This document shows positions 6,765 through 14,555 of a DNA stretch of 64,000 nt, piece by piece. Position numbers and translations under genes: made by a program. Within the stretch, counting starts at the first letter, position 1; each line of letters opens with the position of its first letter. The stretch is from Escherichia coli (GTDB taxonomy: Bacteria > Pseudomonadota > Gammaproteobacteria > Enterobacterales > Enterobacteriaceae), in the NCBI RefSeq assembly GCF_003790525.1, contig NZ_CP033635.1, one strand, 5' to 3'. Below the pieces are notes generated by a model. The model saw only the letters and a program-made list of their open reading frames with translations. It had not been told where the DNA came from and made no database searches.

Positions 6765-6804
6765 ACCTTACCTCATCAATCGCTTGTAGTTATATGTTGT
6801 GTTG

Positions 6805-6840
6805 TGAACATCTATCCATTTAGACGTCCAGATGTAAAGA
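6805..6840 (-). promoter_or_regulatory. metF operator region with MetJ met-box-like repeats
   Basis: tagacgtccagatgt contains adjacent 8-mers resembling the AGACGTCT met box, upstream of metF. Confidence 0.45.
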
Positions 6841-7145
6841 TGAAGGAAAAGCCGAGGGGCGTCAACCGAAAAATGACCAATGATGGTGAGGAAAAATCAG
6901 GGAAGTTGAAAAAAACTCATCTTAATTAGAGGCGATAAAAGATTTCTCTATAGCGCAATCCACCTCGCACGTTTTGACTGATATTCTGACAACACAGCGA
7001 CACCTGGGCTTATTCGAAAAACAACGTCCTGCCACCGGATGGTGATGCTAAGGCATCTGATTCGGCCTGCGCCCTCGCGTAGGCCGAATACTGGATCTGC
7101 AAAATCAACTGGTAACAAACAGATGAATCAACTCAATACGTACTT

Positions 7146-8705
7146 TTACTTGATATCTTTCACGCGCATACCGTTGATCTGTTCATCCGTGATGGTGTTA
7201 CCCGCTTTGAAGTAATCAACCACGGCGTGATAAACGTAATAACCGCCCGTTGTGTTACGCGCTTTCCCTTCGGTAAAGGCGGTAAAACCATCTCCACCAT
7301 CAGCAAGGAAACTCTGAGTAGCAATGTGGTAAATCGTCGCATCTTCAATGGGTTTGCCATTCAGAGTCAGCGTGATTACCCGCTGACCAACCGGCTTACT
7401 GCTGTCGTACTTCATTTCCAGGCCTTTCGATACCTGTAAAACGCCATTACTCAAACTTGCGCCGTGTTCCATCAAACTGCGTAATTGTTTACCCGTGAGA
7501 TCCATCGTCACCAGTTCGTTGGGGAACGGGAAGGTACTGATGACGCCACCCATCGTAATTGCACCCGCCGGGATCTCATTGCGAATCCCGCCAGAGTTGG
7601 TTAACGCCAACTGGGTATTTTTACCCGCCGCTGCCAGCAAAGCGTCTGCCGCCAGGTTCCCGAGAGAAGCTGATTCACCATAGGCACGTTTTAGTTCAAC
7701 CGGCGATTGCGCCACCGTTTGTTGCACGACTTCATCCAGCTTTTTGTTCCAACTATCAATCACCTGTTTCGTTTGCGGATCGGGCTTCCACTCATCGGCG
7801 TAAAGGGTTTTAAGCTCGAAGTTTTTCACCGTAAAAGTGTGCGGCTTCTCTTTGTAGTCGAGAACCAGTTTACCGACATCAATCCCGCCGCTGTCAGTGG
7901 AGAGGATTAACGTATTGCCGACTTTAATCGGTTCCGGCGTACCCACATGTGCATGCCCGGTGATCAAAATATCCAACCCTTTCACCTGACTTGCCGTCTG
8001 AATATCTTTATCCAGTGCGCGACGCACATCCGTGCCTCCCATACTGGACTGGCGGGCCGGAACACCTTCGTGGATCAGGGCGACGGTTAGATCAACCTTG
8101 CCTTTGAGTTCATCGATATAACGTTGTAGCCATTTAATTTCATCACGCGCCTCAATACCCACTCGCGTTGCCGCAGATACCGTATCATTAAAGGCAAATA
8201 CACCGTGCAAACCAATCACGCCAATTTTCACGCCGTCTTTTTCAATGATGGTATAGGGCTTATCCCAGAATGATTTACTGCTGTTCTGATAAAAAACATT
8301 ACCCTGCACAATCGGGAATTTTGCCTGACTCAACTGTAATAACGTATTGTCCCAGCCGTGATCAAATTCATGATTACCTATAGTGACCGCATCGAATGGC
8401 ATGGTATTCATAATATCGATAATCGCCTTGCCTTTAGTCAGGCTGCTGATATACGGTCCGGTAAAATAGTCACCCGCATCAAAAAACCAGGTCGCTTTGT
8501 TTTTAGCTTTTTCTTGTTTAACAAGCGTAGTGATATTTGCCCAGCCGCCAATATCCCGTTTACCGTCAGCAATCCACGGCACTTTATAAGGCTCTACATG
8601 TGCATGGAGGTCGTTGGTATAAATGATGGTGACATCTTTGGCGCAAGCCCAAAACGGCAGTGTTAATGCGATACCCGCAGCAAGCATTTTAATTTTCATA
8701 AACAA
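7146..8705 (-). CDS. Secreted bifunctional metallophosphatase/5'-nucleotidase (UshA/YfkN family) paralog A
   Basis: Signal peptide then [33 protein letters not shown] metallophosphatase motifs and a C-terminal 5'-nucleotidase substrate-binding region. Confidence 0.85.
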
Positions 8706-8831
8706 TCCCTTCCAGTGAGATAAAGGATTGCTACATTACGTTCTGAAAGGCTTTTTTATGTGAGAATACTCACATCCAGAGGCGATAACTGTAGGACAAA
8801 ATCAACGACCTTATGAAATCGTTGGTGATAT

Positions 8832-9959
8832 ATGTCAAATCTGTTTGCGATTAATGTCTGTAAAACGTTCGGTTGTCGAAATTTGGGATTGGCCTCATCG
8901 GAAGATTACAGTTGGCCAGACTATAAACTGGGTTTTCCGGCACTGCACTGCCAGGCATGCGGAAGTTACCCCCCTTTGTTTGATGAACAACAATTTCGTG
9001 ACTGGTTGTCAGTTCACATGACTGCGTGTGCCATAGAAACAGGGCATTTTTGTCCATCATGCTATTGTAAAGAAAAGATTTTTTATGGCCACAACCCGCA
9101 GGGAACACAACGCGTTCAATGCCGTTCATGCAAAAAAGTCTGGACTCCGAAACAGCAGCCAGCAAGAGAAATTACGTATCCCCAGTCCATTGAAACCGTT
9201 CAACTGTTCATGCCCTTTCAAGGAGCCAGCGCAGTACAAAAGCTCTATGTTTTAGTCAGTCTTGACGCCACTCGTGGCAACATCCTTCATCTCTCCACGA
9301 ATTATACGCAACATCAGACAGGAGACAGTCTGCGGTACAGTTACAGAGGCAATACAGAACCAACTGAGCACCATAGCGATATTGTGCAGAGGGTAGATAT
9401 GCGTGAAGCGCAATTCTTGCGCCGGAGCCAGTTCGATGAAATTCAGTATGGCAGTGCTGTGCTCAAGCGCAACGGCAAGGGAGCCATACTACGCCCGGTT
9501 ATCACGGCACACGGGCATTTCAGAATACTGAAAATCCGCTTTCCACATGTCAAAACGCATATCATTTCACACGAATGTTTTCTGAGAGGCGCAATTATTA
9601 CAGCCTGGGCAGATCAGTTCCGCCAACAACAAGGCGAACTTTGGTTCGTAGAAGAAGAAATCAGCGACCGTAACGCTGATATTCCCTGGCATTTTCAGGG
9701 AACGACATACCATGGTTGGTGGCAAAATCAGTGGCAACGCTGGGGGCAGGGGAATAACAGCAAGATGGTCTGCCTGCTCACAGGAGTCTCCTTAGAAAGG
9801 GGCGCAAATGTTTCTCTGGCAACCAGTCGTTGCTTTATCACATGGCTGACAGACCAACACGACTTTACCCAAAGCGCGTTATTATCCGCAGGTCGCGTAA
9901 CGAAAATGCTGACCTCACTGGCGTTAAAATACAATGAATCGCTCACTCCATCTTGTTAG
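8832..9959 (+). CDS. Hypothetical Cys-rich protein with putative N-terminal zinc-ribbon
   Basis: 375-aa ORF; N-terminus has paired CxxC motifs (CQAC, CPSC, CRSC); no family confidently recognised. Confidence 0.55.
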   Translation: MSNLFAINVCKTFGCRNLGLASSEDYSWPDYKLGFPALHCQACGSYPPLFDEQQFRDWLSVHMTACAIETGHFCPSCYCKEKIFYGHNPQGTQRVQCRSCKKVWTPKQQPAREITYPQSIETVQLFMPFQGASAVQKLYVLVSLDATRGNILHLSTNYTQHQTGDSLRYSYRGNTEPTEHHSDIVQRVDMREAQFLRRSQFDEIQYGSAVLKRNGKGAILRPVITAHGHFRILKIRFPHVKTHIISHECFLRGAIITAWADQFRQQQGELWFVEEEISDRNADIPWHFQGTTYHGWWQNQWQRWGQGNNSKMVCLLTGVSLERGANVSLATSRCFITWLTDQHDFTQSALLSAGRVTKMLTSLALKYNESLTPSC

Positions 9960-10188
9960 TCAATACACTCGACAAACGACCATAAATTAATGGGATCACT
10001 ATTTCTCATTTAATTAAATATATGAATATATGACTGAAAAATATAATCACAGTCAATGTTTAATTAATAACATTATTTGTTACCAAGATCACATAATACT
10101 TTCCTGACCTATGCTTACATAAAAATAAGACACGGTGTTCCTTTTATTTAAATAATTCAACCAATGTAACAACCCCTATCAAGGAGGG

Positions 10189-13401: not shown

Positions 13402-13409
13402 TAAAAAAA

Positions 13410-13442
13410 TTATAATGCCATTCATTCACTGAATGGCATTAT
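13410..13442 (+). terminator. Hairpin terminator after nucleotidase paralog C
   Basis: Inverted repeat aatgccattca ... tgaatggcatt followed by a T-rich run. Confidence 0.5.
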
Positions 13443-13478
13443 TTTCTCTAAATCAACAATAGATAATGAGATATATTT

Positions 13479-14339
13479 ATGTGTATAAAAAAGCACGGGA
13501 TAGCTTTATCGATTCTATTAATACCTTGCATTGGAAACGCTCAGGAAATTAAAAGTGAGGAAGGCTGGTTACATCAAAGCTTGAATGTCATTGGTCGCAC
13601 AGACTCTCGCTTTGGCCCAAGGCTGACTAACGACCTCTACCCTGAATATACTGTAGCAGGAAGAAAAGACTGGTTTGATTTTTATGGTTATGTTGATCTA
13701 CCAAAATTCTTTGGCGTCGGCAGTCACTATGATGTTGGGATCTGGGATGAGGGCTCACCACTATTTACGGAAATAGAACCTCGGTTTTCCATTGACAAAT
13801 TGACCGGATTAAATCTTGCGTTCGGCCCTTTTAAAGAATGGTTCATTGCAAACAACTATGTCTATGATATGGGTGACAACCAGTCATCCCGGCAAAGTAC
13901 ATGGTATATGGGGCTTGGTACAGATATCGACACGGGTCTACCAATTAAGCTTTCTGCCAATATATACGCCAAGTATCAGTGGCAAAACTATGGTGCCGCT
14001 AATGAAAATGAATGGGACGGATATCGATTCAAAATAAAATATAGCATTCCTCTTACCCATTTATTCGGAGGGCGATTGGTATACAATAGTTTTACTAACT
14101 TTGATTTTGGCTCCGATCTTGCGGACAAATCACACAATAATAAACGAACCAGTAATGCTATTGCTTCAAGCCATATCCTTTCCCTGCTATATGAACACTG
14201 GAAATTTGCATTTACACTACGTTATTTTCACAACGGTGGACAATGGAATGCTGGGGAGAAAGTTAACTTCGGAGATGGTCCATTTGAATTAAAAAACACA
14301 GGATGGGGAACCTATACTACTATTGGTTATCAATTTTAA
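13479..14339 (+). CDS. Tsx-family nucleoside-specific outer-membrane channel paralog
   Basis: Signal peptide; [64 protein letters not shown] blocks match E. coli Tsx as I recall it; C-terminal aromatic residue. Confidence 0.85.
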
Positions 14340-14519
14340 ATCAGGTGATGTTTTAGATATTTTTACTTAATGCCATTTTGTAATTGTCATAAATAACTTC
14401 ACCATTCACACTGTGAATTCATCGCTCAACACAAAAGCCCCCTTATTACCGGGGCACTGACCAAAGGCAAAATGACAATCAATCACCACCTCCGCAGGAG
14501 GTGGTTTAGAGGTGACAAC

Positions 14520-14543
14520 AAAAGCTGGCAACTGCCAGCTTTT
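14520..14543. terminator. Bidirectional hairpin at the metL 3' end
   Basis: aaaagctggcaactgccagctttt palindrome directly downstream of the metL stop. Confidence 0.55.
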
Positions 14544-14555
14544 GTTCAATAATCA

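Follow-up and report, generated by a model that had tools for sequence, protein, structure and literature searches.

Results

The genes metF and metL lie 7,791 bp apart in the window, the 64,000-nucleotide stretch of Escherichia coli DNA analysed here, compared with 349 bp in K-12, and an earlier note on this DNA was right to call them about 7.8 kb apart here and adjacent in K-12. Gene content and domain matches also agree with its list of three UshA-family nucleotidases, a Tsx-like channel and a Cys-rich ORF (Table 1). Comparison with K-12 places the edges of the variable segment at 6914/6915 and 14556/14557; the K-12 junction is not a clean empty site, since 199 bp of unrelated REP-like DNA replaces the region there. 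We found no tRNA, Rfam family or integrase gene at the locus and, as had been claimed, no direct or inverted repeats flanking the segment; the sole long repeats at the locus are the nucleotidase paralogs themselves. The GC content is 0.40-0.44 in the nuc2-nuc3-tsx block, 0.48 in the core formed by nuc1 and the Cys-rich gene, and 0.53-0.58 in the flanks.

Table 1. Features of the metF-metL region and its neighbours, with positions in the window
Feature	Position	Strand	Remarks
katG	3365-5584	-	gene content of window
metF	5874-6764	-	gene content of window
metF upstream region, common to K-12	6765-6914		97% identity over 150 bp, homology then stops
GC-rich hairpin 3' of nuc1	7060-7089	-	terminator- or REP-like; palindrome ATTCGGCCTGCG...CGCGTAGGCCGAAT
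nuc1, periplasmic UshA-like 5'-nucleotidase	7146-8699 (or 8705)	-	517 aa; signal peptide A-C-A/KD
Predicted CRP site TGTGAgaatacTCACA	8759-8774		centre ~67 bp from nuc1 ATG, ~65 bp from Cys-rich ATG
Palindrome CAACGA-N10-TCGTTG, candidate auto-operator	8803-8824		8 nt 5' of Cys-rich ATG, abuts Shine-Dalgarno
Cys-rich 'cytoplasmic protein'	8832-9959	+	375 aa, 14 Cys; two 4-Cys zinc modules, then RNase H/integrase-like fold
CRP-like site TGTTACCAAGATCACA	10078-10093		1 mismatch; ~100 bp 5' of nuc2
nuc2, second 5'-nucleotidase paralog	10189-11741	+	516 aa when intact; split in window (10189-11151 and 11253-11741)
nuc3, third 5'-nucleotidase paralog	11776-13401	+	541 aa; Pfam Metallophos and 5_nucleotid_C
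Hairpin, nuc3/Tsx-like interval	13412-13442		perfect 13-bp stem
Tsx-like outer-membrane nucleoside channel	13479-14339	+	286 aa, C-terminal Phe; NF011686 match
Two hairpins, Tsx-like gene/metL interval	14485-14546		convergent terminators
metL	14556-16988	-	gene content of window

The nucleotidases contain Metallophos and 5_nucleotid_C domains, and alignment shows that the UshA metal-ligand and catalytic residues D41, H43, D84, N116, H117, D120, H217 and H252, and likewise R410, F429 and F498, are invariant in all three paralogs. Every NCBIfam match of nuc1 falls under its equivalog cut-off, and from sequence we infer that the substrates are nucleotides. nuc3 is 65% identical to nuc1, relative to which it has a 20-residue insertion, and 54% identical to nuc2. 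The dN/dS of nuc1 (0.02-0.03) is comparable to that of metF and metL. One paralog had been considered inactivated by a frameshift. The frameshift is truly present in nuc2 of the window, as one missing C between 11124 and 11125, but it is a 1-bp difference confined to the window: RefSeq gives this strain, SMS-3-5 (NC_010498.1), an intact 516-aa CDS (WP_001261171.1). In the annotations of the other carriers listed there are three nucleotidases, and none was seen to be flagged as a pseudogene. The Tsx-like protein scores 491.8 bits against the Tsx subfamily model NF011686 (cut-off 311) and matches PDB 1TLW (Tsx) with E = 1.4e-114.

The second zinc module of the Cys-rich protein is InsA-like, its C-terminal domain has an RNase H/integrase fold, and the protein's AF2 model has very high confidence. 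In hhalign, the family profile aligns to IS1 InsA at a probability of 96.7% (E = 3.6e-10), distant family members pass the NCBIfam IS1/IS1595 zinc-domain cut-off, and 8 of 52 members match Pfam Zn_ribbon_InsA; no sequence similarity to InsB was found (probability 0.2%). A ~45-residue HTH-like segment common to InsA and distant family members is missing from the enterobacterial subfamily, window protein included, which weakens the case for DNA binding here relative to the wider family. Acidic residues are enriched at three columns of the family (D145, 75%; D202, 87%; E248, 100%), and residual catalytic activity is therefore possible. The gene occurs once per locus, at conserved sites, no terminal repeats were found around it, and in 35 of 35 enterobacterial loci for which upstream sequence is available it is divergent from a nucleotidase gene. 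Its rate of evolution is four to five times that of nuc1, and its dN/dS, 0.10-0.13 with dS saturated, is a sign of purifying selection over a long time. The gene is frameshifted or truncated, with nuc1 kept, in FDAARGOS_1253, S. arizonae and Kluyvera, and must thus be dispensable at least sometimes.

Distant homologs of the Cys-rich protein (21-42% identity) were sampled from Vibrionales, Alteromonadales and Salmonella, including Vibrio and Psychromonas, and eight of the nine have nucleotidase, deo or nucleoside-transport genes no more than two genes away. Their neighbourhoods hold deoB-PNP-nupG, a nucleotidase (several loci), a full deo operon with a Bmp ABC transporter, PNP, Tsx with a nucleotidase, or a porin with a class B acid phosphatase and a class II cNMP phosphodiesterase; the ninth has only a sulfatase and its maturase as neighbours. 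These relationships suggest that the Cys-rich protein is probably a domesticated IS1-type transposase, which may regulate neighbouring nucleotide and nucleoside genes. The earlier statement that no integrase is present holds for the locus, but the Cys-rich ORF itself is probably transposase-derived.

The 64 kb contain a single perfect match to TGTGA-N6-TCACA, namely the predicted CRP site between nuc1 and the Cys-rich gene. Plausible -10 elements stand on either side of it, ~41 bp from its centre (8766/8767). Its half-sites are conserved, with a spacer that is free to vary, across 41 sequences representing more than 12 genera. This cross-genus conservation supports catabolite-controlled nucleotide scavenging, and the site suggests that the cluster may depend on CRP. 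The CRP-like site upstream of nuc2 retains its half-sites in the B2 allele; it is within chance expectation and not significant alone. The palindrome stands at the same position in 28 loci, with one extra copy elsewhere in locus L043. It was found only at the gene's own promoter, and neither upstream of nuc2 nor in the loci of distant homologs.

Among 5,426 complete E. coli genomes, 1,844 (34%) carry the left pair, nuc1 and the Cys-rich gene, and 660 (12%) carry the right part, nuc2-nuc3-tsx. Carriers of the full cluster include UTI89, 83972, ATCC 25922, clone D i14 and O6:K2:H1 strains. The layout metF-(LysR-CMD)-nuc1-Cys-rich gene-metL, with nuc1 and the Cys-rich gene divergent, is found in 23 of 36 Cys-rich loci from other Enterobacteriaceae, and separate Citrobacter and Pseudocitrobacter comparisons gave the same order. 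The 23 loci, alike from nuc1 to metL, come from Citrobacter, Klebsiella, Kosakonia, Phytobacter, Pseudocitrobacter, Superficieibacter, Kluyvera, S. arizonae, E. whittamii and others. Since the left pair holds the same junction in those 23 loci, loss is the best reading of the empty junction in K-12: K-12 most likely lost the left pair, and its junction is probably not ancestral. Deletion scars and internal deletions of the region are present in E. coli. Copies of the module also lie at kdsA-chaA and elsewhere in the chromosome, and in Enterobacter and Rahnella the module has ICE or IS genes nearby, indicating that horizontal movement occurred. The Cys-rich alleles of SMS-3-5 and ST131 are separated by a dS of 1.6, as far as those of other genera, versus 0.33 for nuc1, which indicates allele import by recombination. 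The description of the locus as an accessory island therefore fits the right half, which alone behaves as an add-on (rare and of low GC), but not the left pair.

Discussion

With a confidence slightly better than even, we favour reading the locus as a catabolite-controlled nucleotide-scavenging module, consisting of an old core of nuc1 and the Cys-rich gene, a later low-GC extension and a transposase-derived regulator. The core would have stood between metF and metL since before the enterobacterial genera split and would have been lost by K-12-type E. coli; in SMS-3-5 and ~12% of E. coli it would have been extended by the lower-GC block of nuc2, nuc3 and the Tsx paralog. Without glucose, cAMP-CRP at the perfect site would switch on nuc1 and the Cys-rich gene, and the weaker CRP-like site may serve nuc2-nuc3-tsx. 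The three Sec-exported enzymes would dephosphorylate nucleotides in the periplasm, and the nucleosides would then be imported, with the Tsx paralog widening their passage through the outer membrane. The Cys-rich protein, presumably no longer mobile, would most likely be a DNA-binding regulator of the adjoining genes, and its targets would include the conserved palindrome that covers its own promoter. The earlier note had seen a coherent gene set for nucleotide scavenging; the intact active sites of the three secreted 5'-nucleotidases and the Tsx-type channel bear out the first point, and the conserved predicted CRP site supports the second.

It is unlikely that all 7.8 kb entered the metF-metL junction as a genomic island gained by horizontal transfer, with the K-12 junction ancestral. 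The region is below the flanks in GC throughout and lowest in the right block, found in only 12% of E. coli, 66% of E. coli lack the region, and both the imported Cys-rich allele and the ICE or IS genes near the module in Enterobacter and Rahnella would suit an island; however, the nuc1-to-metL layout recurs in 23 loci of other genera, integrase, tRNA and flanking repeat are all absent, K-12 has REP-like DNA in place of a clean empty site, and internal deletions occur in E. coli. We give very little credence to a role of the secreted nucleotidases mainly in destroying nucleotides that serve signalling or immunity (ATP or NAD outside the cell, cyclic nucleotides), as an ExPEC fitness or virulence trait and not for feeding, an idea that the earlier note had also raised and that found no support: PADLOC matches none of the five proteins, the predicted CRP site speaks for catabolic control, the core pair is widespread among environmental and commensal genera, and distant Cys-rich relatives adjoin deo and nucleoside-uptake genes, that is, catabolism. 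SMS-3-5, which we take to be an environmental isolate, also sits poorly with such a role, even though the full cluster is carried by strains such as UTI89 and 83972, the divergence of the paralogs (54-65% identity) suggests different substrates, and one distant Cys-rich relative adjoins the cNMP phosphodiesterase.

The Cys-rich protein could instead have stayed active as a transposase or nuclease, moving the nucleotidase genes or acting on nucleic acid. The integrase/DDE-type fold, the IS1-type zinc ribbon, the three enriched columns, all acidic in the window protein, and the several chromosomal sites of the module are compatible with this, but we consider it highly improbable: terminal inverted repeats and target duplications were not found, each genome has one or two copies, always at conserved sites, similarity to InsB is nil, the relatives flank quite different cargo, and strand 1 and the position after strand 4, where the DDE Asp residues would be expected from secondary-structure order rather than superposition, appear to have no conserved acidic residue. 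Slightly less improbable, and still quite unlikely, is that the gene is a passenger in decay that contributes nothing to the cluster, linked to the nucleotidase through shared descent of one block. Its broken copies in some carriers, fast evolution and missing HTH-like segment might be taken that way, but the long purifying selection and the very confident AF2 model argue otherwise, and shared descent cannot explain the linkage, because the distant homologs again adjoin different kinds of nucleotide and nucleoside genes.

Among known systems, the proposed scavenging module resembles UshA and Tsx of the CRP/CytR regulon, with which it shares a periplasmic two-domain metallophosphatase/5'-nucleotidase, retaining the 11 metal-ligand/catalytic residues checked, an outer-membrane nucleoside channel and a predicted CRP site in the promoter region. 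However, identity to UshA is low (24% for nuc1 and 25-27% for the three paralogs), the UshA equivalog model gives 155 bits against a cut-off of 600, and the cluster combines three paralogs with its own channel gene (59% identical to K-12 Tsx) and a probably transposase-derived partner gene. CytR-regulated promoters typically carry tandem CRP sites, whereas the cluster promoter has a single predicted one. Mature nuc1 (residues 19-517) is ~98% identical to the structural-genomics entry PDB 3IVD/3IVE 'Nucleotidase', presumably c4898 of E. coli CFT073 in complex with uridine or cytidine, and its fold is therefore known; we found no paper on the substrates or physiology of this entry in the literature searched.

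The same 7.8-kb region has been described as 'GR 31 metL..metF' of ExPEC/AIEC strains, with four ORFs, one Tsx-like and three with UshA domains, and a proposed role in coordinated nucleoside degradation and transport (PMC12928451, PLoS One 2026), which is also the reading of the earlier note. In its accessible text, that comparative annotation covers E. coli only; it mentions neither the Cys-rich gene nor the CRP site, and is silent on how the core pair is conserved across genera and on the history of the junction. The cluster is real, and since it is already annotated and published (GR 31, and one enzyme as PDB 3IVD), the island itself is ordinary; what is new is a conserved partner gene resembling a tamed IS1-type transposase, which may be the cluster's regulator. 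The papers searched contained no experiments on the cluster genes.

The Cys-rich protein has a zinc ribbon homologous to that of IS1 InsA, followed in distant family members by the HTH-like segment, and shares the C-terminal RNase H/integrase fold with InsAB'. InsA acts as a repressor and binds at the promoter of its own gene, and the conserved palindrome at the Cys-rich promoter may be a parallel to this, by analogy. Unlike IS1, the gene is single copy at conserved sites, without inverted terminal repeats; its product lacks InsB similarity, has an extra N-terminal 4-Cys module, lacks the HTH-like segment in Enterobacteriaceae and, as modelled, appears not to be acidic at the canonical first two Asp positions. 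In being single copy, vertically inherited and under host-like rather than IS-like selection, it resembles domesticated transposases such as RAYTs (PMC5581495). RAYTs, however, are HUH/tyrosine-type and tied to REP sequences (PMC5581495), whereas the Cys-rich family is of the IS1/DDE-fold type and linked to genes for the catabolism of nucleotides and nucleosides.

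Results

Gene content of the metF–metL junction

In the window, metF and metL are 7,791 bp apart, against 349 bp in K-12. As the earlier note had described, the gap holds three UshA-like 5'-nucleotidase paralogs (nuc1, nuc2 and nuc3), a Tsx-like nucleoside-channel gene and a Cys-rich ORF divergent from nuc1. Homology to K-12 ends at 6914 on the metF side and restarts at 14557, the metL stop; the 199 bp that fill this space in K-12 are unrelated and REP-like, and we found in them no remnants of the island, only chance 9-11-mers. GC content is 0.48 in nuc1 and the Cys-rich gene (the left pair), 0.40-0.44 in nuc2, nuc3 and tsx (the right block) and 0.53-0.58 in the flanks. 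No tRNA, Rfam family or bounding repeats were found around the locus, the long repeats being the paralogs alone. Likewise, no integrase or recombinase gene, tRNA/tmRNA target or flanking direct repeats were detected, in agreement with the earlier note, so the locus lacks the marks of an integrase-mediated island.

Features of the metF–metL locus and of other parts of the window
Feature	Position	Strand	Remark
metF	5874-6764	minus	
nuc1	7146-8699	minus	
CRP site	8759-8774		nuc1/Cys-rich intergenic region
Palindrome CAACGA-N10-TCGTTG	8803-8824		
Cys-rich ORF	8832-9959	plus	375 aa, 14 Cys
nuc2	10189-11741	plus	
1-bp deletion	11124/11125		relative to NC_010498.1
nuc3	11776-13401	plus	
Tsx-like gene	13479-14339	plus	
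metL	14556-16988	minus	
cytR	22243-23268	plus	
Hypothetical ORF	27914-28588	plus	225 aa
Hypothetical ORF	28711-29337	plus	209 aa
IS4 transposase gene	41958-43304		
ogrK	43343-43561		P2-family prophage
Substitution	57289		relative to NC_010498.1

The earlier note took one paralog to be inactivated by a frameshift. The frameshift is indeed present in the window and splits nuc2; it is due to the lack of a single C that the strain's RefSeq record (SMS-3-5; NC_010498.1) contains, and in that record nuc2 is an intact 516-aa CDS. Apart from this gap the two sequences are 100% identical over the queried 8.3 kb, and from 5000 to 64000 they differ at one other place only, a substitution that is intergenic and lies inside a P2-like prophage. 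Other listed carriers have three annotated nucleotidases, with no pseudogene flag seen. As the 1-bp deletion is confined to the window, nuc2 is not treated as a pseudogene of the strain; we dropped the frameshift as a feature of the locus and regard it as a property of this sequence copy.

Further along the window, the two hypothetical ORFs lie between zapB and rraA, which are adjacent in K-12, so the pair may be another small accessory insertion. The IS4 transposase gene adjoins fieF and is followed by the P2-family prophage, in which ogrK precedes tail, lysis and capsid genes up to the window end (64000).

Nucleotidases and channel

The nucleotidase ORFs match metallophosphatase/5'-nucleotidase families and score far below every NCBIfam equivalog cut-off (for example, UshA 155 versus 600 and NadN 134 versus 436). 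Judged by these matches, they are members of the family with no orthology to a characterised enzyme (UshA, CpdB, NadN, YfkN or SoxB equivalogs). In nuc3, the sole paralog scanned against Pfam, Metallophos (E = 6.5e-11) and 5_nucleotid_C (PF02872; E = 1.3e-36) were both recognised. The motifs of the calcineurin-like dimetal site (DxH, GD, GNHE, H and GHxH) are present in all three paralogs, which are 54-65% identical to one another. On alignment with K-12 UshA (25-27% identity), D41, H43, D84, N116, H117, D120, H217 and H252 are invariant across the three. All ligands of the dimetal site are thus retained, as is the catalytic His-Asp pair; the catalytic residues, whose lack would have spoken against the earlier assignment, are intact. 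In the substrate domain, which carries a stacking Phe pair and a phosphate-binding Arg, R410, F429 and F498 are invariant, and R375 and R379 do not fall into aligned columns.

Read by eye, the N-termini are hydrophobic and end in A-x-A-like sequences (WACA|KD, ILA|QD and VMA|QD), making them putative export signals. Mature nuc1 is ~98% identical to the protein deposited as "Nucleotidase" in PDB entries 3IVD and 3IVE, and the 3IVD construct starts at the signal-peptide cleavage point that we read from the nuc1 sequence. With a dN/dS of 0.02-0.03, nuc1 is under a constraint equal to that on metF and metL.

The Tsx-family channel proposed in the earlier note is borne out. The protein scores 491.8 bits against NF011686 (cut-off 311), covering profile positions 6-289 of 289, and matches the solved Tsx barrel 1TLW with E = 1.4e-114. 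It is 59% identical to K-12 Tsx, has a C-terminal Phe and, on these sequence matches, is assigned to the Tsx nucleoside-channel subfamily. RefSeq flags the SMS-3-5 gene as a pseudogene ("missing C-terminus"), whereas the ORF is full-length (286 aa) with the Phe end; it shares 97.9% identity with the B2 allele, which is intact according to RefSeq.

Distribution and history of the locus

Among 5,426 complete E. coli genomes, the left pair occurs in 1,844 (34%) and the right block in 660 (12%); the remaining genomes have the short K-12-type junction. Carriers of the full form include UTI89, 83972, ATCC 25922 and clone D i14. ST131 has the left pair only, and there the 3' end of the Cys-rich gene overlaps metL. 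Two decay variants were also found: in E. coli 2020N21-246-1 (L060) IS1B stands in place of the region from mid-nuc1 to mid-tsx, and in E. coli 2018-05-2CC (L059) nothing but stubs of nuc1 and of the Cys-rich gene persists beside metL, the metF side being rearranged to malI and a PTS gene.

The Cys-rich alleles of SMS-3-5 and ST131 (locus L003, 3833-4963) share 72% protein identity with a dS of 1.6, compared with 97.7% identity and a dS of 0.33 for nuc1, indicating that the full-form haplotype of SMS-3-5 bears an old or imported Cys-rich allele. This divergence and the low GC content of the right block would fit the gain of the segment from the Cys-rich gene to tsx by recombination. One Escherichia sp. 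locus (L017) has an SMS-3-5-type intergenic region and gene start in a gene that is ST131-like overall, which suggests mosaic recombination.

The Cys-rich protein has close relatives throughout the Enterobacteriaceae. Scanning one genome per species with peptide patterns from this protein only, we obtained 36 loci; the patterns were drawn from 13 closer sequences rather than from the full 52-sequence alignment, and the loci are for that reason confined to Enterobacteriaceae and Rahnella. In all 35 loci that have upstream sequence, the gene immediately upstream of the Cys-rich gene is nuc1- or nuc3-like and divergently oriented. In 23 loci the order is metF, nuc1, the divergent Cys-rich gene, metL and metB, in some cases with additional genes between metF and nuc1. 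These belong to Citrobacter spp., Klebsiella pneumoniae, K. oxytoca, K. spallanzanii, Kosakonia, Phytobacter, Pseudocitrobacter, Superficieibacter, Kluyvera, Salmonella enterica subsp. arizonae, E. whittamii and other Escherichia. The additional genes, a LysR-family gene and a carboxymuconolactone-decarboxylase-like gene, are found in Citrobacter, Klebsiella and Pseudocitrobacter (L007 6897-8272; L008, L015, L026-L040) and are absent in Escherichia, Kosakonia and Phytobacter.

A second, larger cluster occupies the kdsA-chaA site in E. albertii (L005 1134-11131) and some E. coli/Escherichia. There the Cys-rich gene is divergent from a series of nuc1, nuc2, a second nuc2-like gene (nuc2'), tsx, nuc3 and a radical SAM gene. 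Similar clusters occur at other sites in Enterobacter and Citrobacter (loci of this type: L024, L043, L021 and L046). Some genomes have both a kdsA-chaA-type cluster and a metF-metL copy. In Enterobacter asburiae an ICE-type ParB gene lies close to the cluster, and the nuc1/Cys-rich pair of Rahnella adjoins an IS3 transposase. From these comparisons we conclude that the core pair has probably long stood at the metF-metL junction, that K-12-type lineages most likely lost it, and that the module has also moved horizontally. The earlier description of an accessory island thus suits the right block (12%, low GC) and not the left pair (34%, shared across genera at the junction).

The Cys-rich protein resembles a domesticated IS1-type transposase

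Against Pfam, the Cys-rich protein gave a marginal match to the InsA zinc ribbon, and its body matched no family. For the window protein itself the match to InsA-type ribbons is weak (Pfam i-E 0.043; NCBIfam E = 4e-4), as is the only PHROGs match, to a transposase zinc ribbon. An exhaustive homolog search returned 123 clusters, of which many have lengths of 400-520 aa and identities of 21-42%. The family profile matches residues 4-85 of IS1 InsA with 96.7% probability (E = 3.6e-10), and distant members score 32-34 bits (cut-off 28) against NF050000, the NCBIfam IS1/IS1595 zinc domain, and also match the IS1 transposase model over its first 81 positions. These matches argue that an N-terminal zinc ribbon of InsA type is a character of the family. 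Sequence matches of the family profile in the PDB were spurious hits to C2H2 zinc fingers, caused by the Cys spacing, and were discarded.

The 52-sequence alignment contains two 4-Cys modules (C10/C15/C40/C43 and C74/C77/C97/C100), invariant R198 and H229, and nearly invariant Y169, P222, H247, E248, W297 and W301. A segment of ~45 residues that aligns to the InsA HTH is missing from the enterobacterial subfamily, including the window protein; its AF2 model (pLDDT 93.3, pTM 0.93) has no helix pair between residues 101 and 118, and no HTH follows the zinc ribbon. A Foldseek search of AFDB gave, among the matches listed, family members only. These carry the label "cytoplasmic protein", "InsA N-terminal domain-containing protein" or "IS1 family transposase" and come from, among others, Salmonella, Klebsiella, Proteus, Serratia, Vibrio and Photobacterium.

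An active transposase is a poor description of the protein. No similarity to InsB was seen with the family profile (hhalign, 0.2%). Columns enriched in acidic residues exist (D145 75%, D202 87% and E248 100%); by the order of strands and helices, without superposition of coordinates, E248 alone is at an expected DDE position, and no conserved acid lies on strand 1 or at the end of strand 4. On this model, catalysis has likely been lost. No terminal repeats flank the gene in the window, it occupies one place per E. coli genome, and its site is conserved across genera. With a dN/dS of 0.10-0.13 the gene is still under purifying selection.

Most distant homologs looked up lie near nucleotide and nucleoside genes

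We looked up the neighbours of nine distant homologs, which include proteins of Salmonella serovar Give, Vibrio scophthalmi, Psychromonas ossibalaenae and Thaumasiovibrio subtropicus, all annotated as hypothetical. Three have a divergent neighbourhood: a nuc3-like nucleotidase; a deoB-like gene, PNP and a NupG-type symporter; or a porin, a class B acid phosphatase and a class II cNMP phosphodiesterase. In three others the gene directly upstream encodes a NadN-like nucleotidase, a PNP_UDP_1 protein or a nucleotidase. One homolog is accompanied by a sulfatase/phosphodiesterase and then Tsx and a nucleotidase. Another is flanked on one side by a complete deo operon plus adenosine deaminase and on the other, past a TatD-like gene, by a Bmp-type ABC transporter. 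The last has only a sulfatase and a radical-SAM maturase, its upstream side being cut off. Nucleotide or nucleoside genes are thus within two genes of eight of the nine homologs, and they are of differing kinds, so that shared descent of one block cannot explain the linkage.

In two metagenome contigs (L051 and L058), and for AFDB matches in Salmonella Typhi, Dublin and Montevideo, the neighbours are sulfatase and radical-SAM/SPASM maturase genes rather than nucleotidases. This branch suggests that the family may serve several kinds of periplasmic scavenging hydrolases.

Predicted regulatory signals

The 132-bp region between nuc1 and the Cys-rich gene contains the sequence TGTGAgaatacTCACA, the sole perfect CRP core (TGTGA-N6-TCACA) in the 64 kb, where ~0.06 would be expected by chance. 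An alignment of 41 sequences from >12 genera shows the half-sites kept and the 6-nt spacer free. Conserved half-sites with a variable spacer are the usual sign of a working CRP site. By eye, -10-like hexamers lie ~41 bp from the centre of the site on both sides (TAATGT for nuc1 and CAAAAT for the Cys-rich gene), a spacing with which both promoters would be class II. Match, spacing and conservation all point to a promoter region with a predicted CRP site. A 1-mismatch CRP-like site ~100 bp upstream of nuc2 is of a kind expected by chance.

The intergenic region has a further conserved block, TTACGTTCTGAAAG, and the palindrome adjoins the ribosome-binding site of the Cys-rich gene. The palindrome is found at the same position in 28 fetched loci, with one additional copy elsewhere in L043, and is absent from the loci of distant homologs. 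Looking for a second copy, or for a motif common to the nuc1/Cys-rich and nuc2 upstream regions, we found nothing convincing except the CRP half-site. Clear TTGCAA-type repeats, as in CytR operators, were not seen by eye. CytR is the repressor of the nucleoside-catabolism regulon; cytR is here at its usual chromosomal place, ~8 kb from the cluster, past metL-metB-metJ-yiiX-rpmE-priA.

Discussion

The earlier note read the island as a nucleotide-scavenging module. This reading is reasonable, and the intact active sites, the conserved CRP site and the strong constraint on nuc1 lend it better support than before. It is not new: a 2026 paper on APEC BEN2908 (PMC12928451), in the part of its text available, lists the region as "GR 31, metL..metF", 7.8 kb, common to ExPEC and AIEC model strains, and proposes the same role; the Cys-rich gene is not mentioned in that part. 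In the literature searched, none of the five genes had been the subject of experiments, and PADLOC gave no matches that would place them in a defence system. As the earlier note described it, the island is of modest interest, being annotated, with a crystal structure for one enzyme and a role proposed in 2026. What was not expected is the partner gene, derived from a transposase, and the regularity of its neighbourhood, which lift an otherwise ordinary locus to moderate interest.

In view of its InsA-type DNA-binding module and of the divergence in gene order, the partner is most simply read as a candidate regulator dedicated to the neighbouring nucleotide and nucleoside genes. More broadly, we tentatively propose, giving the idea somewhat less than even weight, that these proteins are domesticated IS1-type transposases and make up a family, spread across the Gammaproteobacteria and so far undescribed, in which an InsA zinc ribbon, followed in some members by an HTH, is joined to an integrase-like fold. 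The family would have been co-opted as dedicated transcription factors for periplasmic nucleotide-scavenging and nucleoside-catabolism operons, whose genes would be those for 5'-nucleotidases, Tsx or porin, the deo pathway, nucleoside transport and, in some branches, sulfatases. In this proposal the integrase-like domain may be an effector-sensing or DNA-clamping part.

The island could matter for the way in which ExPEC and other enterics use, as food, nucleotides that stem from lysed cells, mucus or urine. The region is usually listed as ExPEC-specific, whereas its core pair is widespread in genera of the Enterobacteriaceae and was probably lost by K-12-type strains, a correction that changes the use of the region in comparative genomics. 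Should the partner prove to be a regulator, bacteria would offer in it a clear example of a DDE-fold transposase that became a pathway-specific transcription factor. Its regulon would be easily testable in E. coli, Vibrio and Salmonella, and proteins now called "cytoplasmic protein", "hypothetical protein" or "IS1 family transposase" would gain a name and a role.
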